DNA of 64,000 nt from Candidatus Saccharibacteria bacterium RIFCSPHIGHO2_12_FULL_41_12 (GTDB lineage: Bacteria; Patescibacteriota; Saccharimonadia; Saccharimonadales; 2-12-FULL-41-12), in NCBI GenBank assembly GCA_001790445.1, contig MGCQ01000009.1, positions 150,500 to 214,499 of the forward strand. The letters are read 5' to 3'. The position numbers were made by a program, and so were the translations under genes. This document shows positions 4,002 through 63,715 of this stretch, one piece after another. The notes beneath the pieces were generated by a model that worked only from the letters and a program-made list of their open reading frames with translations, did not search any database and was not told where the DNA came from. Numbering within the stretch: the stretch's first letter is position 1; every line of letters starts with the position of its first letter.

Positions 4002-5387
4002 TTAGCTTCTGATGAACGAATAAAATAGTATCAAAACAGCGACTAACATCACTACGAAAGTTAAGCGCACAAACGTATTTGATAAAATGCCATTTTTGTA
4101 ATCGCCCATTATATCTTTGTTATTGCCTATTTTGGCGATCATAAACAGCAGGGGAACGGCTGCTATACCGTTAAATACCGCTGTATAAACCAGCGCTTTG
4201 ATAGGATCTATACCTAGCAAGTTAATTGCCAGTCCAGTCAGCGTAGCAACAATAATTACTGCGTAAAAACCGACTGCTCTTTTGAATTTACGGTGCAAGC
4301 CTTCTTTCCATCCCAACGTTTCGGTGATTGCGTATGATGATGAGCCTGCTAAAACGGGAACAGCAAGTAGCCCAAGCCCGATGATTCCAGTTGAAAAAAT
4401 TAGTTTGGCAACCAGCCCAGCGTTTGGAAAATTAGTTACCAGCGGTTCGATTGCTTTGGCTGCATCTGAGGCAGTGTTAATTGAAGTAATCCCGTTTTTA
4501 AAAAGTACTGAGGCACAGACTATCACGATAAACCATGCGCCGAGACTGGCCATAGTCATGCCAACTACGTTATCAACCCTGATACTTCTAATAAATCTTT
4601 TGCTAACTTTTGGTAGGTCAGATTTTGCTGTTAATCTGCGACTACTTATTTCGCTTTCCACAGTTTCCGAGGTATCCCAAAAGAAAAGATATGGCGAAAT
4701 AGTAGTACCCAACATGCCGACAATAATGAATATAGTCGTCGAATCCAGATGTACATTAATCGCAAAAGTAGCCCGAATCAATTCGCCCCAATCTTGAACT
4801 ACCAAAAAAGCAGTAATTGGATAGGCAAGAAGTGCTAGGGCCAACCATTTGAGAATTTTGGCGTAAGTTTTATATTTTACAAATATTTCTAGAAGTATCA
4901 CAAAAATTGCATAAAAAAGAGCCAGCAAAACAAACGGCGCATCGACTAGTAGCTGCGTTGTCGCTGCCATTGCCCCAAGATCAGCGCCAATGTTAATCGT
5001 GTTGGCGATGACAACCAATGCTACCGACATAGCCAGAAGCTTTTTACTGTAGTTATCCTTAATTACCGCGGCTAAACCCTTACCCGTTATTGCACCAATA
5101 CGAACGCATGATTCCTGAACTGCCATCAGCAGTGGGTACATAAAAGGAAAAAGCCACAGCAAACCTGTTCCGTAAGCGGCTCCAGCTTGCGAATAAGTCG
5201 CAATGCCCGATGGATCATCATCTGCAGCGCCAGTGACAACCCCGGGCCCCAATATTCGCACAAAACGACTATATCGTTTGTGATTAGTCATACTTTTGCC
5301 GATGTTATAAGCTTGTTTTTCGGACTTATTAATCTTTCGCTTGAATTTGCGTTCGGTTCTAGTGTATCTACTGAGAGGTTTCGTCAT
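4002..5387 (-). CDS. Nramp-family divalent metal cation transporter
   Basis: 461-aa polytopic ORF. GPGVVTGAADDDPSGIATYSQAGAAYGTGLLW matches the conserved first-helix region of the Nramp family. The true start may be the internal MTNHKRY. Confidence 0.75.
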   Translation of the reverse strand: MTKPLSRYTRTERKFKRKINKSEKQAYNIGKSMTNHKRYSRFVRILGPGVVTGAADDDPSGIATYSQAGAAYGTGLLWLFPFMYPLLMAVQESCVRIGAITGKGLAAVIKDNYSKKLLAMSVALVVIANTINIGADLGAMAATTQLLVDAPFVLLALFYAIFVILLEIFVKYKTYAKILKWLALALLAYPITAFLVVQDWGELIRATFAINVHLDSTTIFIIVGMLGTTISPYLFFWDTSETVESEISSRRLTAKSDLPKVSKRFIRSIRVDNVVGMTMASLGAWFIVIVCASVLFKNGITSINTASDAAKAIEPLVTNFPNAGLVAKLIFSTGIIGLGLLAVPVLAGSSSYAITETLGWKEGLHRKFKRAVGFYAVIIVATLTGLAINLLGIDPIKALVYTAVFNGIAAVPLLFMIAKIGNNKDIMGDYKNGILSNTFVRLTFVVMLVAVLILFYSFIRS

Positions 5388-18748: not shown

Positions 18749-19924
18749 ATGTCAGCAGAATTAGGAACAAGAGTAATGGACGCAGTACGCAATCCTAGAG
18801 CAACAGTAGCACTAGTTGGTGTGATGTCAGCAATGGCTTTATCTGGTTGTTTAGGTATTGGTGAAAAAGACGAGTCAGCTAAAGTTAAACAGGATGCTCA
18901 ATGCGGAAAGGTTGATGGCTTCACAGGTATGGACATGGACGATTTCGGTCTTAACGAAGAGCGAGTTCTTCCAAAAACAGAAGAAGATACCCAAGGTGAA
19001 TTTATAACAGAAGTTTCATCTCTAGCTGTGATCATGGACAATGATGACGAAAATAAGGATGTGTATGCTTCATCATTGGCTGCTCTATATTCTGTCATAC
19101 ATTCAAGCCCTAAAGACAAAGATGGCTTTGTAGACCCTAACGGCAAAGATCTAAATGTTTCTTATCAAGAAGCTCTAGATACTATGTTCCCAGGTGATGA
19201 ATTTGATAAAGAAGCTACAGTAAAACTTTGTCAGGGTGTATCTGACTATCTTGTTGAGAACACCGACGAAGCTGGAGCTAAGGATATTAATCTTCTTGTA
19301 GGAGAACTAAAGTTTGACCCTGAAGGTGACGACCCTGAAGCTCTAAGGATTAAAAAACTTGTCAAAGCTGAAGTAGATCTAAATAATGTACTTGTTGTTA
19401 AAGATTCTAATGGGAATAAAGTGCTTGCTTATATAACTGAAAATGACGAAGGTGAAGTTAGAGTATTTCTACCAATAGACCCAAGCAAGGGTGCAAAAAA
19501 TAATAAAGCCCACAAGGGCAAGGCTAAAGGCCAAAGACAGACTGGCGCACAAGGCGGTGGTGGTTCTGGTCGAGATGGCGGAACTGGTGGTGGCAAAGGC
19601 GGTGGCGAAGGCGATGGCTGTGGTGGAAGTGGTTGCGGTAAAGGCGACAGAGGAGGTGACAACGGCGGCGGAGATGGCTGTGATACAAATTGTGGTGGCG
19701 ATGAAAAAACCCCAGGCAAAAACCCCCCAGCACAACCTCCAGAGCAGCAACAACCTCAACCACAACCAGAGCCTACTCCAGAACCACAACCAGAGCCTCA
19801 GCCTGAACCAAACCCAAATCCAAAAGGTGATGACAATACTCCTCCAGCACCATCTATATTGTTACCACTTTTGTTAGCAAAAAGGGTTCGATACAACTCA
19901 AAAGCCTTTAAAAGGGATAATTAG
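18749..19924 (+). CDS. Lipoprotein with acidic domain and Gly-rich/Pro-rich low-complexity tail
   Basis: 391 aa. Signal peptide with lipobox MALSGC. Gly/Cys tract GGGGSGRDGGTGGGKGGGEGDGCGGSGCGKGD, then PQPEPTPEPQPEPQPEPNPNP. The C-terminus is hydrophobic then basic (ILLPLLLAKRVRYNSK). Confidence 0.6.
   Translation: MSAELGTRVMDAVRNPRATVALVGVMSAMALSGCLGIGEKDESAKVKQDAQCGKVDGFTGMDMDDFGLNEERVLPKTEEDTQGEFITEVSSLAVIMDNDDENKDVYASSLAALYSVIHSSPKDKDGFVDPNGKDLNVSYQEALDTMFPGDEFDKEATVKLCQGVSDYLVENTDEAGAKDINLLVGELKFDPEGDDPEALRIKKLVKAEVDLNNVLVVKDSNGNKVLAYITENDEGEVRVFLPIDPSKGAKNNKAHKGKAKGQRQTGAQGGGGSGRDGGTGGGKGGGEGDGCGGSGCGKGDRGGDNGGGDGCDTNCGGDEKTPGKNPPAQPPEQQQPQPQPEPTPEPQPEPQPEPNPNPKGDDNTPPAPSILLPLLLAKRVRYNSKAFKRDN
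19544..19825 (+). repeat. Low-complexity coding repeats (GGN tract, then CCA/GAG/CCT Pro-Glu-Pro-Gln repeats)
   Basis: Directly visible: ggcggtggtggttctggt...ggcggtggcgaaggcgatggc, then ccacaaccagagcct repeated. This generates the four antisense or off-frame shadow ORFs at 19429-19877. Confidence 0.7.
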
Positions 19925-21038: not shown

Positions 21039-21121
21039 ATCACTCTGTACAAAGTAGCAAATTTTTGCTACAATAGAGTTAAGTTAAAAGGGCAAGCGTG
21101 ACTGACCGCTCAATTATTAAA

Positions 21122-21160
21122 ATATCCCTCAGCCTAATATGGTTGAGGGATATTTATATT
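21122..21160 (+). terminator. Hairpin terminator candidate
   Basis: ATATCCCTCA, 12-nt loop, TGAGGGATAT, followed by a T-rich tail. It lies 84 nt after the LPXTG gene stop. Confidence 0.55.
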
Positions 21161-21226
21161 AATTAATTTTAGAGAATAAGATTTTTTTGAACTACTTTCC
21201 GCCGACACCAAGGTGTCTGATGCGTC

Positions 21227-21644
21227 ATACTTTCTTGTGTTGACAAGAAAGTATGCAAAGAAACAACAGGCTGTTTGAAAAATACATATTGATCCAAACA
21301 AACCAAAAGCCCTGTTTCTGCGGGACTCCTTCCAGTCGGGCTAAAGCCTAGTCCTCAAAACAAGGAGCTTTTGATCTGTTCGTTTCATCTGTTTTTCAAA
21401 GGGCCTGATCAGTAGTAGTCTAAAGTCATGATTAATAATATTTCCATAGGAAATATACAAAGGAAGCCTGGGTCAGGCCATGAACCAGACCTGAGAGGTT
21501 TCGTAGAAATAACAACTATTAGCTGAGGACTGTTTGAGCAAAGCGAGTTCCGCAAGCTGTTGTTATTCTCTACAAGAAATCTCATCAAGTATGTTCATAG
21601 CCTGTTGTTTCTTTGGTTACTTTCTTGTCAACACAAGAAAGTAG
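21227..21644 (-). repeat. Intergenic structured repeat element, full-length copy A (core on minus strand)
   Basis: Bounded by hairpins ATACTTTCTTGTgttgACAAGAAAGTAT (left) and TTACTTTCTTGTcaacACAAGAAAGTAG (right). The ends are inverted (GCAAAGAAACAACAGGCTG / CAGCCTGTTGTTTCTTTGG). The conserved core GGGACTCCTTCCAGTCGGGCTAAAGCCTAGTCCTC is at 21322-21356. Confidence 0.8.
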
Positions 21645-21735
21645 CTCGTGCAAGGCACTTCAGTGCCGACGAAAGGCTGTTATGTAGTGGCAACTCTTGA
21701 TTTTACAGAGGTAATACGCTATAATCTGAGTCTAT

Positions 21736-21799
21736 GGTCTCATCGTCCGAGCGGTCTAGGCGCCAGGTTTCCGTCCTGGCAACTTCGAAGAAGATCACC
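21736..21799 (+). pseudogene. tRNA-like remnant (5' two-thirds related to the adjacent tRNA-Glu, T arm missing)
   Basis: It shares TATGGTCTCATCGTC and CCAGGTTTnCnTCCTGGCAA with tRNA-Glu. The anticodon loop is TTTCCGT (TCC). The D stem does not pair, the T arm collapses to CTTCGAAG, and it ends GAAGATCACC. It is about 64 nt and cannot fold into a normal cloverleaf. Confidence 0.3.
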
Positions 21800-21825: not shown

Positions 21826-21900
21826 GGTCTCATCGTCTAACGGTTAGGACACCAGGTTTTCATCCTGGCAATAGGGGTTCGATTCCCCTTGAGATCACCA
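21826..21900 (+). tRNA. tRNA-Glu (anticodon UUC), CCA encoded
   Basis: Hand-folded cloverleaf of 75 nt. Acceptor GGTCTCA/TGAGATC (one G-U), D stem GTCT/GGAC, anticodon stem CCAGG/CCTGG with loop TTTTCAT, 4-nt variable region, T arm AGGGG-TTCGATT-CCCCT, discriminator A plus CCA. Confidence 0.9.
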
Positions 21901-22143: not shown

Positions 22144-23277
22144 TTGACTAGAATACCAAATATTGTTAAAATTGGTAATGTGAATAACAATAACATCTTA
22201 ACTTTAGATTTCCCTCCAAATCTCGATAAGATATGGACAAAGGATTTTGCATTACAATTGGCTGCAACAGAAGGCTCTATTAGTGCATTGAACCAAGCCG
22301 TATCACTATTGCATAATCCAAATCTACTTATGCGACCTTTGCTAACAAAAGAAGCAGAATCCAGCTCTAGATTAGAAGGCACACAAGCATCAATGGATGA
22401 CGTTTTTAAGTCAGCAATGCGACCAGACTCTGAGCAGAGTGATGATGTTCGTGAAATTATCAATTATCAAAACGCATTGTTGCGTGGTGAGCATATCATA
22501 AAGACAAGACCACTAAATCAGGTGGTTATTAGACAAATTCACTCAGTTCTTATGAGTAACGTTAGAGGTGGTTCAGCCAATCCAGGTAGCTTTAGAACTG
22601 AAAATGTTTGGATTGGTGTACTTGGAACAGGAATGGGAGAAGCGAGATATGTGCCACCTGATGCTGTGCATATTCCTGAACTAATGAAAAATGTCGAAGA
22701 GTTTATGTCTAATTCACAAATGCACCCCCTAATAGCTTGTGGATTATTGCACCATAGATTTGAAGCAATTCACCCTTTTAAAGATGGTAATGGTAGAACA
22801 GGCAGGTTACTAATAACTTTATTCCTTCTTAAAACTCAAAAGTTATCTAAGCCAATGCTGTATCCAAGCGGATTTTTTGAAAAAAATAAAGATATTTATG
22901 TAAAAGCTCTTAATGCTGTTGATGTGAATCAGGATTGGTATAGTTGGTTGCTATTCTTCCTTAAAGCAATAGAAAAACAGGCAACAATATCATTGGGCGT
23001 GGCGAGTGAGATTGACAAATTATTCAAAGATTACAAGAGATTGATACAAGAGACCGCAGCTCACATGGCTTTAGGCAACGTTCTAGAATTTTGTTTTAAG
23101 CAGCCGTATGTTACGGTTGGACTTATATCAAGTGCTCTAGGTATGCCAGCTAATACTGTCCGAAGGTATATAACAACCCTTGAAAGCAAAGGCATATTAG
23201 ACCAACCTTATACAATCGCACGCGGCGAAAAAGTTTATACTAACAAAGCTCTTTTAGAGATCTTAAGAAAAATATAG
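22144..23277 (+). CDS. Fic family protein (AMPylase-type) with C-terminal winged-helix
   Basis: 377 aa. The Fic motif HPFKDGNGRTGRLL is present, and the N-terminal (S/T)xxxE(G/N) inhibitory-helix-like SSRLEGTQAS is upstream. TTG start as listed. Confidence 0.85.
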   Translation: MTRIPNIVKIGNVNNNNILTLDFPPNLDKIWTKDFALQLAATEGSISALNQAVSLLHNPNLLMRPLLTKEAESSSRLEGTQASMDDVFKSAMRPDSEQSDDVREIINYQNALLRGEHIIKTRPLNQVVIRQIHSVLMSNVRGGSANPGSFRTENVWIGVLGTGMGEARYVPPDAVHIPELMKNVEEFMSNSQMHPLIACGLLHHRFEAIHPFKDGNGRTGRLLITLFLLKTQKLSKPMLYPSGFFEKNKDIYVKALNAVDVNQDWYSWLLFFLKAIEKQATISLGVASEIDKLFKDYKRLIQETAAHMALGNVLEFCFKQPYVTVGLISSALGMPANTVRRYITTLESKGILDQPYTIARGEKVYTNKALLEILRKI

Positions 23278-27550: not shown

Positions 27551-29665
27551 ATGATAGAGTCTCTTGTTCGTGGTCTTAATAAGGCCCAAGAATCTGCGGT
27601 GATTTGTACAGATGGTCCGATGCTTATCCTGGCCGGCGCAGGTAGTGGTAAAACCAAAACTCTAACGCACAAAATCGCCTATCTTTTGCAAATTAATAAA
27701 GTCCCGCCATCCCAAATTCTGGCGGTGACGTTTACAAACAAAGCGGCTAGAGAAATGGCTGACCGACTCGGAACGCTAATCGGTGGCAGAATAATTTTGC
27801 CATATCTTGGGACATTCCATAGCGTTTGCGTGCGGCTTCTCAGGAAATACGGTCAACAGATTGATATCCCCAGCAATTTTGTTATTTACGATGAAGCAGA
27901 CAAAAGAAACTTGGTCAAAAAAATTCTGAAGAGCCTCCACATAGATGAAAAAAAATATCCGCCTCCGCAAATTTCTGCAATTATTTCGAACGCCAAAAAT
28001 GATTTGATGGACCCTGATCATTACATAGAAATTTCCAGTGGACCAATTGCCGAGGTGGTCTACAGTGTATATACGCAATACCAAAGAGAACTCGCCGCCT
28101 CTAAAGCGTTAGATTTTGATGACATTATTATGAAAATGGTTGAGTTGCTCAAAGCTAGCAAACAGACCAGGCAATATTTGCATCAGCAAATTAATTATAT
28201 TTTTATCGACGAATATCAGGATACTAACCTTGCTCAGTACACATTGATCAAACTACTTATAAACAAATCCAAAAATATTACAGTGGTGGGGGATGATTGG
28301 CAGTCGATATATAGTTGGCGTGGGGCGGATTTTCGGAATATTTTGAAATTTGAAAAAGATTTCCCCGGTACAAAAGTTATAAAGTTGGAGCAAAATTATA
28401 GAAGTACTAAGAATATTCTTGATTCAGCCCATTCTGTTATTACCAAGAACACCAACCGGTCAGAAAAAAAATTGTTTACCGACCAAGGACATGGATCTCC
28501 TGTTGAAATAATTCAGACTCACAACGAAAGAGACGAAGGTCGTCGGGTGGCACAAATTATTCAACAAGAGCTTGCCATGGGCACGTCGTACGATGACATC
28601 GCTGTACTTTATCGGACGAATGCGCAGAGCCGATCTATAGAAGAATCGATGATCCACTACAATGTAGCCTATAAAATTGTCGGTGGTGTAAAGTTTTATG
28701 ATCGTAAGGAGATAAAAGATATATTGGCTTATTTGCGCCTAATCATGCAACCCGATGACCAGGCTAGTTTTGAGCGTATCTATAACGTGCCAAGCCGTAA
28801 AATTGGTGATAAATCATTGGCGACTTTTTATAATTTTAAGATATCGCGGGGACACAGTTTGAGCCAGACTTTGGACGAAATAGCTGGTTGTGAAGATTTA
28901 ACCCCTAGCACCCGCGTTGGCTGGGATAGTCTGGGGAATATAATTCGCAGTTTTAGAGACAAGCAAGAAGATTTGACAGTTGAGGAAATTATTCAGCAAC
29001 TTATCAAGATACTTGATTATTATGAATATCTGGATGATGGCACTGTACAGGGGGAATCTCGTCAGGAAAACGTCAAAGAGCTTCTAAGCGTTGCTAGTCA
29101 ATTTGTGGGACTCGGGCTGAGTGAATTCTTGGAACAAACGGCTTTAATAAGCGACCTAGATGAAAAAGACAAAGTCAACGGAGTTGTTACCCTAACAACT
29201 ACCCATGCGGCCAAGGGTTTAGAATTCCCTGTGGTGATTATGGCTGGCATGGAAGAAGGTATTTTCCCTCATTCTCGCTCGTTATTTGACGGGAGTGAAC
29301 TAGAAGAAGAAAGGCGTCTTTGTTATGTCGGCATGACTCGGGCCAAATCGAAGTTATATCTTACTTATGCACAGTCAAGAATGATTTTTGGTAAGCAAGA
29401 GTATAATATTCCGTCTCGCTTTCTCGGTGATATTGATGAAAATTTTGCAAAAAATACCGACAACGTTTCTGACTTATCTCCCAAACCAGTTACTTCAAGT
29501 GACCCTGTATACATACCTGAGCTTGAACCCGGCGATAATGTCTCTCACGGACTTTTTGGCAATGGCGCAGTACTTGAAGTAGATGGCTCATTTGCACTTG
29601 TCTATTTCAAAGGCAAAGGAAACAAGAAAATTAACTTAGAATTCGCCCCAATAAAGAAACTCTAA
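27551..29665 (+). CDS. pcrA: ATP-dependent DNA helicase, UvrD/PcrA family
   Basis: 704 aa. Motifs: AGAGSGKTKTLTHK (motif I), FIDEYQDTN (II), VGDDWQSIYSWRGA (III), TTHAAKGLEFPVV (VI region). Confidence 0.9.
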   Translation: MIESLVRGLNKAQESAVICTDGPMLILAGAGSGKTKTLTHKIAYLLQINKVPPSQILAVTFTNKAAREMADRLGTLIGGRIILPYLGTFHSVCVRLLRKYGQQIDIPSNFVIYDEADKRNLVKKILKSLHIDEKKYPPPQISAIISNAKNDLMDPDHYIEISSGPIAEVVYSVYTQYQRELAASKALDFDDIIMKMVELLKASKQTRQYLHQQINYIFIDEYQDTNLAQYTLIKLLINKSKNITVVGDDWQSIYSWRGADFRNILKFEKDFPGTKVIKLEQNYRSTKNILDSAHSVITKNTNRSEKKLFTDQGHGSPVEIIQTHNERDEGRRVAQIIQQELAMGTSYDDIAVLYRTNAQSRSIEESMIHYNVAYKIVGGVKFYDRKEIKDILAYLRLIMQPDDQASFERIYNVPSRKIGDKSLATFYNFKISRGHSLSQTLDEIAGCEDLTPSTRVGWDSLGNIIRSFRDKQEDLTVEEIIQQLIKILDYYEYLDDGTVQGESRQENVKELLSVASQFVGLGLSEFLEQTALISDLDEKDKVNGVVTLTTTHAAKGLEFPVVIMAGMEEGIFPHSRSLFDGSELEEERRLCYVGMTRAKSKLYLTYAQSRMIFGKQEYNIPSRFLGDIDENFAKNTDNVSDLSPKPVTSSDPVYIPELEPGDNVSHGLFGNGAVLEVDGSFALVYFKGKGNKKINLEFAPIKKL

Positions 29666-29667
29666 GT

Positions 29668-30007
29668 TTGTGTGGGGCAAACCCAAACGAACACTACAAA
29701 ACAGTAGCGCCAACGAGCCGAGAAGATATCTTCTCGGTCTGCACTACGCTTATACTCTGTTTTGTAGCATTCATTCGACTTTGCCAGACAACACTAAAGT
29801 TCTATGCGGACGTAAAGCCTTCAGGTTTGGCTCACGAAAAAACAGATGAAATAACCTACGAAACAAAGGATTGTTTTGAGGACCAGGCTTTAGCCCGACC
29901 AGAGGGAGTCCCGGAAAAACATCTTTTGGTTTGGAGGTTATTTCAATCACGTTTTTTTGTAAGCCGAGTTTCTTTGCTTACTTTCTTAGTCGGTACAAGA
30001 AAGTAAG
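29668..30007 (+). repeat. Intergenic structured repeat element, half copy C
   Basis: Shares with 63300-63632 the box GCACTnCGCTTATACTCT (29741-29758), GGCTCACnAAAAAA, the core GAGGACCAGGCTTTAGCCCGACCAGAGGGAGTCCC (29878-29912), TTATTTCAATCACGTTT, and an identical terminal hairpin TTACTTTCTTAGTCGGTACAAGAAAGTAAG (29978-30007). The 112-aa ORF listed here is a shadow. Confidence 0.8.
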
Positions 30008-30155
30008 ATATAAACGTATTGGAGATAGTTGGAGCAAAGCCACACACAATAAACGACGTAAATTGTGGTAAAATAGAGTTTACATTGTTGGTTCAATTAC
30101 AAAAACAAAGATATATTCGGTTAAACTGCGAGAGAGGGACCAACAGTAGTAGATA

Positions 30156-31325
30156 ATGAAGAACAGTAATAACAAGAACAAGAGTGGTAGTGCATTGAGT
30201 CACAGATTGGTTATCCCAGCAGTGACGCTTCTTTTTTTGGTGATTTTTTCTTTTGCGGCGTTTATATTTTTTGGAGGGTCTCTATCTGGCGCGGATGACG
30301 TTCATGCGGTCAAGATAACCGTAGATGGCAAGACTAAACTTGTGCCAACTAGGGCCAAAAGTGTTGGCGAATTGCTGGACAGCATGAATATCTCACTGAG
30401 GCCGAAAGATGTGGTTGAGCCTGCAAAAGACACCCCGATCTCTAGTGACAAGCTTAGCGTGAATGTCTATTATGCCAGACCGGTAACGATTTTTGACAAT
30501 AATAACAAACCAATAGTGGCGCAGCTGGCTGAGCGGCGACCGGAAGAAATAGCCAAAAGGGCGGGATTGACAGTTTACCCAGAAGATAGGATTAACGCTG
30601 TTTCTACTAATGATCCTCTGGGCAGTGGGGTGGTTGGTGACAAAATAGTCATTGACAGAGCTCTGCCAATAAAACTAAGCCTGTACGGAGTAATTTATGA
30701 TATTCGCACACAAGCTGTGACGGTCGCGGACCTCGCGCATGAGCGAAAAATTAACTATGATCAAAGTTCCATTCTTCCTAGACCAGAAACCAAGCTAAAG
30801 GCTAATGACGTGGTGTTTATTACTGAGCCAGGCAAGCAAATTGCCACCATGGATGAGGTAATAGCTCAGAACACCGAATATGTTGACAGCACAGATTTGC
30901 CAATCGGCGCAACAAAAGTCCGTGAGGAAGGAAGTCCAGGCAAAAAAGTCGTAGTTTATGAAATAGCTAAAGACGGATCTAAAAAACCTCTACAAGAAAT
31001 TATAGTTTTGCAGCCTGTTAGGAAATTAGTTGCCCGTGGGGCAAAAGCTAAAGAAGATGCCAAATTTGACGGGGATTTTGCATCAGCACTAGCCCGCCTT
31101 AGAAGCTGTGAAGGTGGGTACACTAGCATTAATCGTGCAGGCGGTTACTACGGAGCCTACCAATTTGACATAGGCACTTGGAATAACTACGGTGGTTATT
31201 TAAACGCAGCCCAAGCTCCACCAGCCGTACAAGATCAAAAGGCCTGGGAGACATATCAAAGACGCGGATGGCAGCCGTGGCCTACCTGCAAAAACAAGGT
31301 AGGACTTCAGGATATTTACAGATAA
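30156..31325 (+). CDS. RpfB-like cell-wall hydrolase (DUF348 repeats + G5 + Rpf/transglycosylase-like domain)
   Basis: 389 aa. N-terminal TM. Repeated DUF348-like units (VKITVDGKTKLV..., VTIFDNNNKPIV..., IKLSLYGVIYDI...). G5-like EEGSPGKKVVVYE. The C-terminal LARLRSCEGGYTSINRAGGYYGAYQFDIGTWNNYGG...WQPWPTC matches the Rpf catalytic domain pattern. Confidence 0.75.
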   Translation: MKNSNNKNKSGSALSHRLVIPAVTLLFLVIFSFAAFIFFGGSLSGADDVHAVKITVDGKTKLVPTRAKSVGELLDSMNISLRPKDVVEPAKDTPISSDKLSVNVYYARPVTIFDNNNKPIVAQLAERRPEEIAKRAGLTVYPEDRINAVSTNDPLGSGVVGDKIVIDRALPIKLSLYGVIYDIRTQAVTVADLAHERKINYDQSSILPRPETKLKANDVVFITEPGKQIATMDEVIAQNTEYVDSTDLPIGATKVREEGSPGKKVVVYEIAKDGSKKPLQEIIVLQPVRKLVARGAKAKEDAKFDGDFASALARLRSCEGGYTSINRAGGYYGAYQFDIGTWNNYGGYLNAAQAPPAVQDQKAWETYQRRGWQPWPTCKNKVGLQDIYR

Positions 31326-34634: not shown

Positions 34635-35046
34635 TGGTGGAGCTGGTGGGTATTGCACCCACGTCCATCGGTTTTACTTTGACTGGTCTTCTACATATTT
34701 AGTTTATTTACATATCTTTGAGGGTACCGGCTAAACAAACAAAACGATATCTTCGCATTTCTCATTGTCTTAGAGAATTCCGTGGAGAAAAGCACAAAAT
34801 TCTAGCAACCAGATAATATAACACGATTTTGATCTATCTGGTGTCGATCAAATCATGGTTTAAGACAAGCTTAAACTTGCGTAAGCTGGTGTGCTGATAG
34901 AAGCAACAAAATTATTAACCTTGTCGTTCATAGCATCAGCTATACGCTGAGTAAATGTTTTTGCATTTATTCAGTTTGTCTATAACGCTGACAAGCGATA
35001 TGCGAACCAATCTGTAAAAGTCCAATGTCGAGCTTAAATCAGCCCC
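34635..35046 (-). ncRNA. ssrA: tmRNA (SsrA), about 412 nt
   Basis: The minus strand begins GGGGCUGAUUUAAGCUCGACA... and ends ...GGACGUGGGUGCAAUACCCACCAGCUCCACCA. The acceptor stem is GGGGCUG/CAGCUCC with a G3:U70 pair, followed by ACCA. The T-arm-like helix is GUGGG-UGCAAUA-CCCAC. An extended -10 gTGcTATAAT (35056-35061) lies 9 nt upstream of the 5' G. Confidence 0.85.
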
Positions 35047-51144: not shown

Positions 51145-51166
51145 AATTAGTTTTAACATCGTTGCA

Positions 51167-51189
51167 ATTAAAGCCTGGAAGGCTTTAAT
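51167..51189 (+). terminator. Hairpin after atpC
   Basis: ATTAAAGCC-tggaa-GGCTTTAAT. There is no clear T-run, and the repeat element follows immediately. Confidence 0.4.
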
Positions 51190-51193
51190 CACC

Positions 51194-51630
51194 ATACTTT
51201 CTTGTACTAACAAGAAAGTATGCAAAGAAATAGCAGGCTGTTGACCAGACTTGATGGGATTTCTTGTCGAGGATTACAACAGCTTGCGGAACTCCCCTCC
51301 GTGGCCTTCGGCGACGAAGGGTCAGACAGTCCTCGCCTAATAGTTGTAATCTCGACGAAATCTCTCAGGTCTGCTCAAGGCCTGACCAACAATCTGTATA
51401 TTTTCTATGAAAATATTATTAATACTTTAGACTACTTATTTAGCCCCTTTTAAAAACACCTTCGGTTATTGCAACTACAAACAGATTAATCTGAGGACCA
51501 GGGCTTGTCCCCGACTGGAAGGAGTCCCGGAAGAGTAGTCTGTTTGTAGTTGTAATAAGCTAGGGTAATTGTTTTTAAACCGGGGTGGCACTTTTTGCTT
51601 ACTTTTTCTTGCTAGAGAGAAAAAGTAAGG
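51194..51630 (+). repeat. Intergenic structured repeat element, full-length copy B (inverted relative to copy A)
   Basis: Left hairpin ATACTTTCTTGTactaACAAGAAAGTAT, then GCAAAGAAATAGCAGGCTG. A long imperfect hairpin spans 51246-51373. The core GAGGACCAGGGCTTGTCCCCGACTGGAAGGAGTCCC is at 51493-51528. The right hairpin is TTACTTTTTCTTGCTAGAGAGAAAAAGTAAGG. The 77-aa ORF listed inside is a shadow. Confidence 0.8.
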
Positions 51631-51761
51631 TGATAGAAGCCCTGCCAAGGGCTTAGCGCAAGAGATTATTATATATCTGTTATACTATCGTTTTTGTCGA
51701 CACAAAAATGGAACAAGAAATTGCTTGCTTGCAAGCCTGCTAAAAGATGAAAAAAAGATAA

Positions 51762-59019: not shown

Positions 59020-60129
59020 ATGAAGGTTTATGTAGGATTATCTGGTGGTGTCGACTCGTCCGTTACCGCTGCGTTGCTTAAAGAACAAGGGCACGACGTC
59101 ACTGGCGTGTTTATGAAAAACTGGGCAACTGATTTGCCAGGTTTTGCCTGCCCCTGGAAAGATGATTACATGGATGCCAAGCGTGTGGCCGTGCATTTGG
59201 GGATTGACTTTAAAATGTATGATTTCCGGAAGCAGTACAAGCAAAAAGTGGTCGATTACATGATCGCAGAGTACAAAGCAGGGCGCACGCCTAATCCTGA
59301 CATTATGTGTAACCAAGAAGTTAAATTCAAACTTTTTTTGGAAACTGCGATAGAAGACGGTGCAGAGGTGATTGCGACTGGTCACTACGCCAGAATCATG
59401 GATTCTGCAAGCACTAAATCCGAAGCACGAAATCCTAAACAAGCACTAAATCCGAAGCACGGAACTTTAAACATTTCAAAATTGTACAAAGCGAAAAATA
59501 AGGAGAAGGATCAGACGTATTTTTTGTATAGGGTGACAGAGAAGGCATTATCTAAAACATTGATGCCAATAGGGGATTTTGCGACCAAGAAAGAAGTTAG
59601 AGATTTGGCCAAGAAGTTTGGCTTGCCAACTGCAGACAAAAAAGATTCCCAAGGGATATGTTTTGTCGGCAAGGTTGGGATTCGTGAGTTTTTGCAACAA
59701 TATGTCTCGTCCAAGCAGGGATCAATAATAGATCAAGATGGTAAAGAGATTGGCAAACACGACGGAGCTATTTTCTACACCATTGGGCAGAGGACAGGGC
59801 TCGGCGTAGGTGGCGGGATGCCTTATTATGTAGTCGCCAAGGACATGGATAAAAACCAGGTGATCGTCAATACGGATCTCACAGACAAGAGACTCTGGCT
59901 TAATGATTTTGAAATCTCGGATGTGCACTGGATTGGCGATGAGCCAGATTTGAGCCAAGAATACGACGTTTGCCATCGTTACCGCGCACCGTCTACCAAG
60001 GCCAGATTCAGTGAATCAAAACACGGCCTCAAAGTATCTCTTGTCGAACCAGTCAGAGCCATAACCCCTGGTCAATCAATAGTCATCTACAATAAAGACC
60101 AAGTCCTCGGCGGCGGAATTATAGCCTAA
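59020..60129 (+). CDS. mnmA: tRNA 2-thiouridine(34) synthase
   Basis: 369 aa. MKVYVGLSGGVDSSV (PP-loop), NPDIMCN, ATGHYAR, KDQTYFL, DSQGICFVG. Confidence 0.9.
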   Translation: MKVYVGLSGGVDSSVTAALLKEQGHDVTGVFMKNWATDLPGFACPWKDDYMDAKRVAVHLGIDFKMYDFRKQYKQKVVDYMIAEYKAGRTPNPDIMCNQEVKFKLFLETAIEDGAEVIATGHYARIMDSASTKSEARNPKQALNPKHGTLNISKLYKAKNKEKDQTYFLYRVTEKALSKTLMPIGDFATKKEVRDLAKKFGLPTADKKDSQGICFVGKVGIREFLQQYVSSKQGSIIDQDGKEIGKHDGAIFYTIGQRTGLGVGGGMPYYVVAKDMDKNQVIVNTDLTDKRLWLNDFEISDVHWIGDEPDLSQEYDVCHRYRAPSTKARFSESKHGLKVSLVEPVRAITPGQSIVIYNKDQVLGGGIIA

Positions 60130-63272: not shown

Positions 63273-63299
63273 ATTATTTATTATTAAAATAACGTCTGT

Positions 63300-63632
63300 G
63301 GAATCGGATCATGCCCGAAAAGAGAGCGTTACATGCCGGGAAACTTTCTGTTTCTCGGATTGCACTCCGCTTATACTCTCTTTTAAGGCATGATCCGATT
63401 CCATCAGGACTTAGAACCCCTACTTTGTTACAGATTTAATTCTCGCATCCTGGCTCACAAAAAAACTGATGAAAATGACTTTATGGCAAAGGACAGTTTT
63501 GAGGACTAGGGCTTGTCCCCGACCAAAGGGAGTCCCACAGAAACATCTTTTGGCAGGAAGTTATTTTCAATCACGTTTCTTTTGTAAGCCGAGTTTCTTT
63601 GCTTACTTTCTTAGTCGGTACAAGAAAGTAAG
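63300..63632 (+). repeat. Intergenic structured repeat element, half copy D
   Basis: 16-bp stem GGAATCGGATCATGCC (63300-63315) / GGCATGATCCGATTCC (63387-63402). Box GCACTCCGCTTATACTCT (63362-63379). Core GAGGACTAGGGCTTGTCCCCGACCAAAGGGAGTCCC (63501-63536). The terminal hairpin at 63603-63632 is identical to that of copy C. Confidence 0.8.
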
Positions 63633-63715
63633 ATATCAATAACAGAAAGATAATAATATACTAGCGGGGGATAGATTAAATAAAGTTTTGCCAAGAAAGA
63701 CATAAGAGACCAATC

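Follow-up and report, generated by a model that had tools for sequence, protein, structure and literature searches.

A chimeric copy of a modular, probably mobile hairpin-repeat family downstream of pcrA in a Saccharibacteria genome

The window, that is, the whole stretch of DNA analysed (64,000 nucleotides from Candidatus Saccharibacteria bacterium RIFCSPHIGHO2_12_FULL_41_12; GC content 41.5%), carries an insertion of hairpin modules, referred to here as C, between pcrA and an rpfB-like gene. Three further members of the same family (A, B, and D) lie elsewhere in the window (Table 1). A preliminary description of this DNA had drawn attention to a conserved core within region C, and every string that it quoted, including the stem halves ACCTACGAAACAAAGGA and TCTTTTGGTTTGGAGGT, was located where it had been reported.

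Table 1. Positions of copy C, its neighbours, and the other copies of the family in the window.
Feature	Position	Strand	Basis or remarks
pcrA	27551-29665		UvrD/PcrA domains; stop codon 29663-29665
112-aa ORF	29668..30006	+	TTG start; artefact of the repeat
Insertion C, entire (~386 nt)	29673..30058	+	Alignment with syntenic relatives L180 and L181, borders accurate to ~10 nt; follows the pcrA stop codon and precedes the conserved TGTGGTAAAAT -10 box (extended -10) of the rpfB-like gene
C, left module (hairpin)	29686..29773	+	Fold; alignment with D and L088
C, left-module outer stem (variable), CTACAAAACAG / CTGTTTTGTAG	29690-29700 / 29759-29769
C, left-module inner palindrome, CCGAGAAGATATCTTCTCGG	29718-29737
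C, left-module conserved box, GCACTACGCTTATACTCT (= GCACTMCGCTTATACTCT)	29741-29758
C, arm (~45-bp hairpin)	29829..29964	+	Covariance model R1
C, core 1 at arm apex (TGAGGACCAGGCTTTAGCCCGACCAGAGGGAGTCCC)	29877..29912	+	Core match
C, GTTTCTTTG box and hairpin H (CTTACTTTCTTAG-TCGG-TACAAGAAAGTAAG)	29968..30007	+	Module common to several phyla
C, tail of C-type element (GATATAAACGTA..AGATAGTT..)	30008..30058	+	Partly common to L088 and D (alignment)
rpfB-like gene	30156-31325		G5 and transglycosylase domains; downstream neighbour of C
Copy A, two-armed composite	21190..21685	.
A, left half: T / H / core-1 arm	21190-21225 / 21226-21255 / 21270-21405	T and arm -
A, core match	21322-21357	-
A, centre			AT-rich, palindromic
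A, right half: V arm / H / T	21474-21603 / 21617-21644 / 21645-21685	arm +
A, V-arm apex, GTTTGAGCAAAGCGAGTT	21532-21549
Copy B, two-armed composite	51146..51670	.	After the atp operon
B, left half: T1 / H / V-type arm	51162-51193 / 51193-51222 / ~51234-51375	T1 and arm -
B, right half (after the centre): core-1 arm / H' / T1	51444-51581 / 51598-51629 / 51629-51661	arm +
B, core match	51492-51528	+
Copy D, second C-type insertion	63273..63697	+	Between alaS and an ftsA-like gene
D, left module / arm / H	63293-63409 / 63452-63589 / 63602-63632
D, core match	63500-63536	+

C and D each fold into three hairpins: (i) a left module; (ii) a long arm tipped by the core; and (iii) a short terminal hairpin, H. 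Region C folds at -115 kcal/mol (z = -6.4 vs. shuffled sequence), and the z-score of region D is -9.9 on the same basis. When the left modules of C, D, and L088 (a third C-type copy, at an unrelated locus) are aligned, the outer stem differs and the inner part is kept. Within the window the conserved box of this module is restricted to C and D, and it is absent from the viral contigs searched. The arm is conserved at its base (AAAAACWGATGAAA / TTTCAATCA), variable and covarying in its middle, and conserved again at its apex, where core 1 forms an invariant GGAC/GUCC helix and a small covarying inner hairpin (GGC/GCC, GGGC/GCCC-type, or GGUC/GACC). The stem flanking the core had been described as covarying over 15-17 bp; it does covary, and the hairpin as a whole is ~45 bp long.

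The covariance analysis that the preliminary description had proposed bears out a conserved apex inside a truly covarying stem. From an alignment of 22 arms a consensus hairpin was derived (MAFFT and RNAalifold), in which 22 of 35 pairs have changed on both sides, and the count is the same on 27 arms. A search with a covariance model (R1) then returned 30 sense-strand arms, which score 72-131 bits, as compared with at most 30 bits on the antisense strand; the arm of C itself scores 127.5 bits on the sense strand vs. 26.6 bits on the other. Pairing holds in 92.8% of the cells across 27 arms of the window and of related loci, vs. 70.8% in shuffled controls and 37-63% when the partners are slid, and 231 cells carry double changes where 91 are expected; the alignment used here was fitted to the model, which favours structure, and an independent MAFFT alignment with RNAalifold agrees with it. 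Since G·U or U·G pairs outnumber A·C or C·A pairs in the arms by 73 to 9, the hairpin is maintained on one specific strand only. The V-type arms from other phyla, introduced below, have the same strand bias (G·U 35 vs. 9). These alignments show that the arm structure is selected on one strand.

The core pattern (GAGGACYAGG..CCCGAC..GGAGTCCC) matches the window four times, in agreement with the earlier count of four copies, whereas 0.27 matches are expected by chance and none of 100 shuffles reached four. All modules found in the window are confined to these four elements, which account for ~3% of it. The basic half-unit, read 5' to 3' on one strand, consists of a ~45-bp arm, a TTTCTTTG box, the short hairpin H, and usually an outer hairpin, T. 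Full elements contain two such half-units, which point outward from an AT-rich palindromic centre. Copy A joins an A arm (minus strand) to a V arm (plus strand), copy B joins a V arm (minus strand) to a B arm (plus strand), and the elements at L087, L095, L098, L101, L102, L103, and L104 are composites of A-like and B-like arms. In C and D, a separate left hairpin module replaces one half and has the same orientation as the single arm, which is followed by H and a short tail. C has in common with copies A and B only the arm and the terminal hairpin, as had been noticed before; the label of half-copy is better replaced by that of a chimeric subtype with its own left module, as this combination occurs at a minimum of three independent loci (C, D, and L088), with L097 carrying a related one. 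Copy D, previously counted among the full elements, agrees with C in its left module, its arm, its H hairpin, and its tail and is a second copy of the C type.

The core-1 arms fall into three subtypes: A-like (tail ..CAGCCTGTTGTTTCTTTGC, H = ATACTTTCTTGTCAACACAAGAAAGTAT), B-like (tail GGGGTGGCACTTTTTGC, H' = TTACTTTTTCTTGC..GAGAAAAAGTAA), and C-like. A fourth type of arm, V, has the apex GAGGAC-TGTTTGAGCAAAGCGAGTT-CCGCA, only the two ends of which are common with core 1. The stem had been taken to be unique to each copy, but it is shared within subfamilies, the arm of copy A being 92-96% identical to arms in L095, L097, L098, and L101, groundwater-metagenome loci where the flanks are unrelated. 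The outer hairpin beyond H is either T1 (GGTGAT..AAAGCC-loop-GGCTTT..AATCGCAA) or T2 (GTCG-stem-loop-stem-GACGAAAGG). Loci differ in how they combine the four arm types (A, B, C, and V), the left module, and the hairpins H, H2, T1, and T2. An extra hairpin pair (CGTTTTTGTCGACACAAAAATGG and a GC-rich hairpin) lies just past element B (51681-51745) and also ends arms in L044 and L104, which makes it another interchangeable terminal module (H2/T3). In L103 (565-759), an A-like arm has an extra hairpin of ~60 nt just 3' of the core, so arms tolerate internal insertions. Two short tandem duplications within ORFs of the window (59408-59471, 2 x 32 nt; 19758-19805, 2 x 24 nt) are unrelated to the hairpin repeats.

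Comparison with relatives shows that C, D, and A are not conserved features of their sites. In relatives whose PcrA is 78% identical, the gene order PK-PGK-TIM-x-pcrA-rpfB-ksgA is kept, and the pcrA-to-rpfB spacer measures 95-98 nt in the syntenic relatives (L180 and L181), where the element is absent, vs. 490 nt in the window; the alignment assigns ~386 extra bases to the window. The alaS-to-ftsA spacer is likewise 31 nt in L182-L184 (AlaS ~80% identical) vs. ~450 nt in the window, where copy D sits just upstream of a conserved TGTTATAAT box. Copy A is missing upstream of tRNA-Glu in the relative L180. C, D, and A are therefore absent from the same sites in relatives that keep the gene order, and loss in those relatives instead of gain here is less likely, as it would have had to happen cleanly and independently three times. 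The ~40 kb of distinct sequence searched in the relatives contain neither an arm nor a module. The preliminary description had implied a conserved RNA motif or a 3' end of the pcrA transcript; the element is instead a lineage-specific insertion. A possible long or short target duplication at C and D (TAAGTTTGTG / TAAATTGTG, and remnants of gene 3' ends) looked plausible by eye but failed a shuffle test, in which the similarity of the junctions of C and D was no better than that of shuffled sequence (p about 0.57). That the elements lie precisely between stop codons and downstream promoters, in the tiny and tightly packed genomes of Saccharibacteria and their relatives, points to active, tolerated mobile DNA, which also gives rise to spurious ORFs (such as the 112-aa call) and to noise in assembly and annotation.

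Several other features were observed in the same comparisons. A pseudo-copy of the 5' half of tRNA-Glu (21735-21790; L180 5377-5430) is preceded by a CGCTATAAT promoter box and followed, ~35 nt downstream, by the genuine tRNA-Glu gene (21826-21900); the conservation of the pseudo-copy in the relative indicates that it is old and unrelated to element A. A small unit at 21060-21165 (L180 ~5225-5325) combines a terminator hairpin with a promoter-like TGCTACAAT and a stretch, GACTGACCGCTCAA, that is conserved; it matches nothing in Rfam and may be a small RNA or a leader. A Fic/DOC-family gene (22144-23277) follows tRNA-Glu in the window, whereas pyruvate kinase directly follows the tRNA in L178-L180 (L181 begins at pyruvate kinase, its upstream region falling outside this comparison). 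The entire 15.8-23.3 kb stretch differs from the relatives, which suggests a variable island beside the tRNA. The tmRNA gene (34635-35046, minus strand; 87 bits) has the same neighbourhood as in the relatives.

Core 1 was also sought outside the window. A scan of 185,579 reference genomes gave a single true match (L044, a Saccharimonadales MAG), in contrast with four copies in the 64 kb of the window; the other 85 matches were due to chance, in high-GC or otherwise unrelated DNA. In metagenomes the core was found on 18 contigs, mostly from Hainich groundwater, on which all arms are intergenic. Core 1 is absent from the viral contigs searched, element C from the plasmids searched, and the L106 element from the annotated phages searched.

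The V arm apex (CTGTYTGAGCRAAGCGAGTT), H, and the outer T recur, with their layout preserved, both in Ralstonia and on viral contigs whose GC content is 34-63%. Seven IMG/VR contigs (31-60% GC) carry H together with its 5' TTTCTTTG box. The 18-mer of the V apex is present on 63 viral contigs, about nine of which show the full layout of a true arm, namely a 35-55-bp hairpin with an entirely different stem and the same loop, followed by TTTCTTTG and H. The 18-mer GTTTGAGCGAAGCGAGTT was rejected as a general marker of arms, as most of the 63 viral matches stand in two other conserved contexts without a long hairpin. These contexts, seen in ~50 viral contigs among the IMG/VR loci L112-L173, are highly conserved and also lack H: one (..AAGTGGTTT/18-mer/AAATAAATTATC..) has ~40% GC and the other (..GTGCGCCAGT/18-mer/CTTCCACTG..) ~44% GC, and the 18-mer might there be a junction or attachment sequence. 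The 63%-GC version of the element is a repeat of Ralstonia megaplasmids, which occurs at 560 places in 150 replicons, with 1-13 copies in each; a search of 5,426 E. coli genomes found none. Matches to the H/T part of this repeat extend to Burkholderia, Paraburkholderia, Caballeronia, and Variovorax, and those to its H part to a replicon of Ilyobacter polytropus (Fusobacteriota). T follows H in the Ralstonia-type as in the window copies, and the order V apex, TTTCTTTG box, H, T is kept. Modules of 20-40 nt are retained, with order and strand unchanged, in organisms of 34% to 67% GC, while the stems between them change fully but stay paired. This pattern points to a shared, unnamed recognising machinery, for which the apex loop, H, and T provide a sequence handle.

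The Ralstonia copies also provide a series of alleles. In R. pseudosolanacearum GMI1000, the glgX-glgB spacer reads T(-) H(-) arm(-) centre arm(+) H(+) T(+), which is the plan of A and B in the window. Among strains with 99.4% identical flanks, three alleles of this site occur (the full element, T-H-T alone, and a lone T), and each junction combines parts of the left and the right copy of H or T. The series shows recent gain or loss, which may reflect insertion or, equally, the instability for which long palindromes are known; the shorter alleles may be deletion products of an unstable palindrome instead of empty sites. In this spacer (L174 2690-3215; L175-L177), even the shortest allele is a long palindrome (GGTTTGGTCTTGGTGGTGCATC ... 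GATGCACCACCAAGACCAAACC) with T at its tip, so the repeat is nested in a still larger inverted repeat.

Known RNA families and published descriptions were also searched. In the whole window, only tmRNA and tRNA matched Rfam 15, a match being a covariance-model score at or above the gathering threshold of the family. Permissive searches with 29500-30200 and with the Ralstonia-type element gave weak generic matches to long hairpins (mostly miRNA precursors), far below threshold, and the seven viral loci that bear H gave nothing. Searches of the literature with sequence strings and concept terms retrieved no matching description. Three candidate identities were set aside: (i) a hammerhead or other small ribozyme, prompted by CUGAUGA in the arm base, and (ii) a PyrR-binding loop, prompted by CCAGAGGGAG, neither of which has support from Rfam and both of which rest on motifs that vary between copies; and (iii) divergent small-RNA genes driven from the centre of a composite, as no promoter-like site is found in A or B.

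Taken together, region C is probably a copy of a modular, non-coding hairpin-repeat family of the REP/BIME/REPIN or structured-MITE kind that spreads to intergenic sites. According to this interpretation, the repeats would have moved to new intergenic positions in some lineages of the Saccharimonadia, and C and D would be chimeras in which a different hairpin module was swapped in for one half. The mobilising enzyme would recognise a folded single strand with its conserved loops, H, and T, as do TnpA of IS200/IS605, RAYT, and the enzymes that act on attC. That single-stranded DNA is the form recognised is a tentative suggestion. It is favoured because the elements move and the halves of the composites lie on opposite strands, because A, B, and C have no promoter-like site inside, and because a design that keeps structure, frees sequence, and confines wobble pairs to one strand matches the ends of IS200/IS605, REP-RAYT, and attC. 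Downstream of pcrA the insertion is probably transcribed along with that gene, in which case its hairpins may, as a side effect, influence the 3' end of the mRNA. It is conceivable, though somewhat doubtful, that the half-unit (a long hairpin with the CTGTYTGAGCRAAGCGAGTT loop or its Saccharibacteria-specific replacement, the TTTCTTTG box, H, and T) is the substrate of an undescribed, horizontally spreading system that acts on single-stranded DNA or RNA. If so, such a system would exist in Patescibacteria, Betaproteobacteria, Fusobacteriota, and phages, and could be either a mobile element of a new, hairpin-borne class or a mobile RNA that acts with a conserved protein, and not another lineage-specific MITE. 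Neither an autonomous parent element nor a consistent partner gene was found in the window or the fetched loci.

The strongest competitor is that the elements are a structured non-coding RNA family or cis-acting elements of mRNA 3' ends, in which the RNA of arm, H, and T binds a conserved partner, and the copies are either gene copies or exapted repeats that stabilise or terminate the pcrA, alaS, and atp transcripts. The strong covariation and its strand-specific G·U signal would fit RNA equally well, the apical loops are conserved across phyla, and the C-type copies (C, D, and L088) are all co-oriented with the upstream gene. Against this, the elements are absent from close relatives at all three sites tested and so are dispensable for those genes, the composites bear their two arms on opposite strands, and no sigma-70-like promoter is found inside A, B, or C. 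The sense strand of C has no terminator-like or promoter-like signal, and the sole terminator-like match near C is on the opposite, wrong strand. With no Rfam family matched either, this explanation is considered unlikely, although the elements may yet have an RNA role, be it as a 3'-end stabiliser or processing site or as a mobile RNA to which a conserved protein binds.

The modules could also be double-stranded sites, that is, palindromic binding or recombination sites for a dimeric protein (e.g., a Xer-like 11-6-11 arrangement), with H and T as crossover sites and the arms as accessory DNA. H usually has 10-12-bp arms around a spacer of ~6 bp, and the Ralstonia alleles (T, T-H-T, and full element) show hybrid junctions inside H or T. 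Yet slippage between short direct repeats joined by a palindrome explains these junctions equally well, and no recombinase gene lies nearby. A duplex palindrome would carry no strand bias, so the 73-to-9 excess of G·U over A·C, which leaves the complementary strand mismatched, speaks against the duplex form and makes these sites an improbable explanation. It is very improbable that the copies are orphan guide-RNA scaffolds of a transposon-encoded nuclease or recombinase (like omega RNA, reRNA, or bridge RNA), in which the variable stem would be the programmable part. The elements do have a conserved scaffold around a variable middle segment, are present in several copies, and are associated with mobile DNA, but the variable segment is fully base-paired in the hairpin instead of free, the variable stems have no match of at least 12 nt elsewhere in the window save one chance 12-mer, the window holds no tnpB, iscB, or IS110-type gene, and Rfam gave no HEARO or IS605-orfB match. 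Finally, the 112-aa ORF, which the preliminary description had already judged an artefact, does offer an open frame with a TTG start, but it is scarcely credible as a genuine small protein gene, as it matches no Pfam family, crosses paired and covarying stems, is missing with its region from the relatives, and is not kept in the homologous copies D and L088, which have 3-12 stops in every frame. The elements are non-coding.

With regard to the enzyme that might mobilise the hairpin repeats, one locus provides a lead. A gene for a 206-aa RAYT-like Y1 (HUH) transposase lies between a truncated and a complete arm in L104 (1294-1914, minus strand; = L193 2832-3410). Its product scores 40.1 bits with Y1_Tnp of Pfam (cutoff 23) and 38.6 bits with REP_Tyr_transpos of NCBIfam, which is below the cutoff of 80. 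Both sides of the gene bear GAGGTCWGACCTC palindromes, which on one side form two tandem copies of 48 nt. Homologues (62-64% identity) fall into P0242, at the same conserved locus on many contigs, and P0243, on one contig. Those in L185-L192 and L195 have the GAGGTCWGACCTC palindromes and lack the arms; in keeping their flanking palindromes they behave as RAYT genes do. As the link to arms is confined to one locus, the RAYT-like protein was rejected as a general partner and is only a lead. The 64 kb of the window contain neither a transposase nor a RAYT-like gene.

Among named systems, the elements are like REP/BIME/REPIN sequences in that they are intergenic and multi-copy, have hairpin units in mosaics and inverted doublets, and fold in a strand-specific manner. 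The T hairpins begin with GTCG or GGTG, much as REPs have a GTAG head, and those of the forms GTCG-stem-loop-stem-GACGAAAG and GGTGAT..AATCGCAA resemble REPs loosely; the ~135-nt arms and H do not, and four elements are present in 64 kb. Unlike REPs, which are 20-40 nt long, the arms here measure ~135 nt and the composites ~500 nt, the apical loops are conserved, and modules are common to several phyla. Unlike REP-RAYT systems, the window has no RAYT gene, and the RAYT-like gene at L104/L193 has its own, different palindromes. The elements also resemble MITEs (Correia/NEMIS, ERIC/IRU, BOX, RUP, and RIME), being non-coding, a few hundred bases long, strongly folding, and situated in transcribed spacers, with modular variants, internal indels, and presence or absence that differs between relatives. 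Copy A has terminal inverted repeats (83-nt arms, 77% complementary), and symmetry is also seen in the composites of L095, L101, and Ralstonia; a clear terminal inverted repeat is lacking in copies of the C and D types. Unlike MITEs, C and D have no detectable target-site duplication, the stems diverge wholly and stay paired, and modules are found in Patescibacteria, Betaproteobacteria, and Fusobacteriota; to our knowledge, the known MITE families are lineage-specific. A parent insertion sequence sharing these ends was looked for in the window and in the fetched sequence of the 18 metagenome loci, the viral contigs, and the Ralstonia locus, and none turned up.

The ends of IS200/IS605, the ORF-less derivatives of these elements (PATEs), and integron attC sites offer another likeness, namely a folded single strand as substrate in which structure is kept over sequence. 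With IS200/IS605 and attC the elements also have in common G·T wobbles and bulges on one strand only and the lack of a target duplication. In IS200/IS605, both end hairpins lie on the same strand, whereas the two halves of the composites lie on opposite strands. PATEs insert 3' of a fixed tetra- or pentanucleotide, and no common target motif of this kind was seen at the A, C, and D junctions. The arm bases read AAAAACWGATGA / TCAATCAYG and not the R''/L'' and L'/R' boxes of attC (RYYYAAC...GTTRRRY), and neither cassette arrays nor an integrase gene were found. Unlike both of these systems, an adjacent Y1 transposase or integrase is not the rule. The ssoA-type single-strand origins of rolling-circle plasmids are orientation-specific, long, imperfect hairpins with a variable stem and a conserved loop motif and base. 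The likeness of the elements to them is one of design only, as the elements are chromosomal and multi-copy and have neither RSB and CS-6 (TAGCGT) nor a Rep gene. Judged by their sequence features, no named family accounts for the elements in all of its defining traits, and they would be assigned to none of them. They are best classified with hairpin repeats of the REP/BIME/MITE type, as a new relative that is unusually large and modular, with a conservation of modules across phyla for which no description was found.
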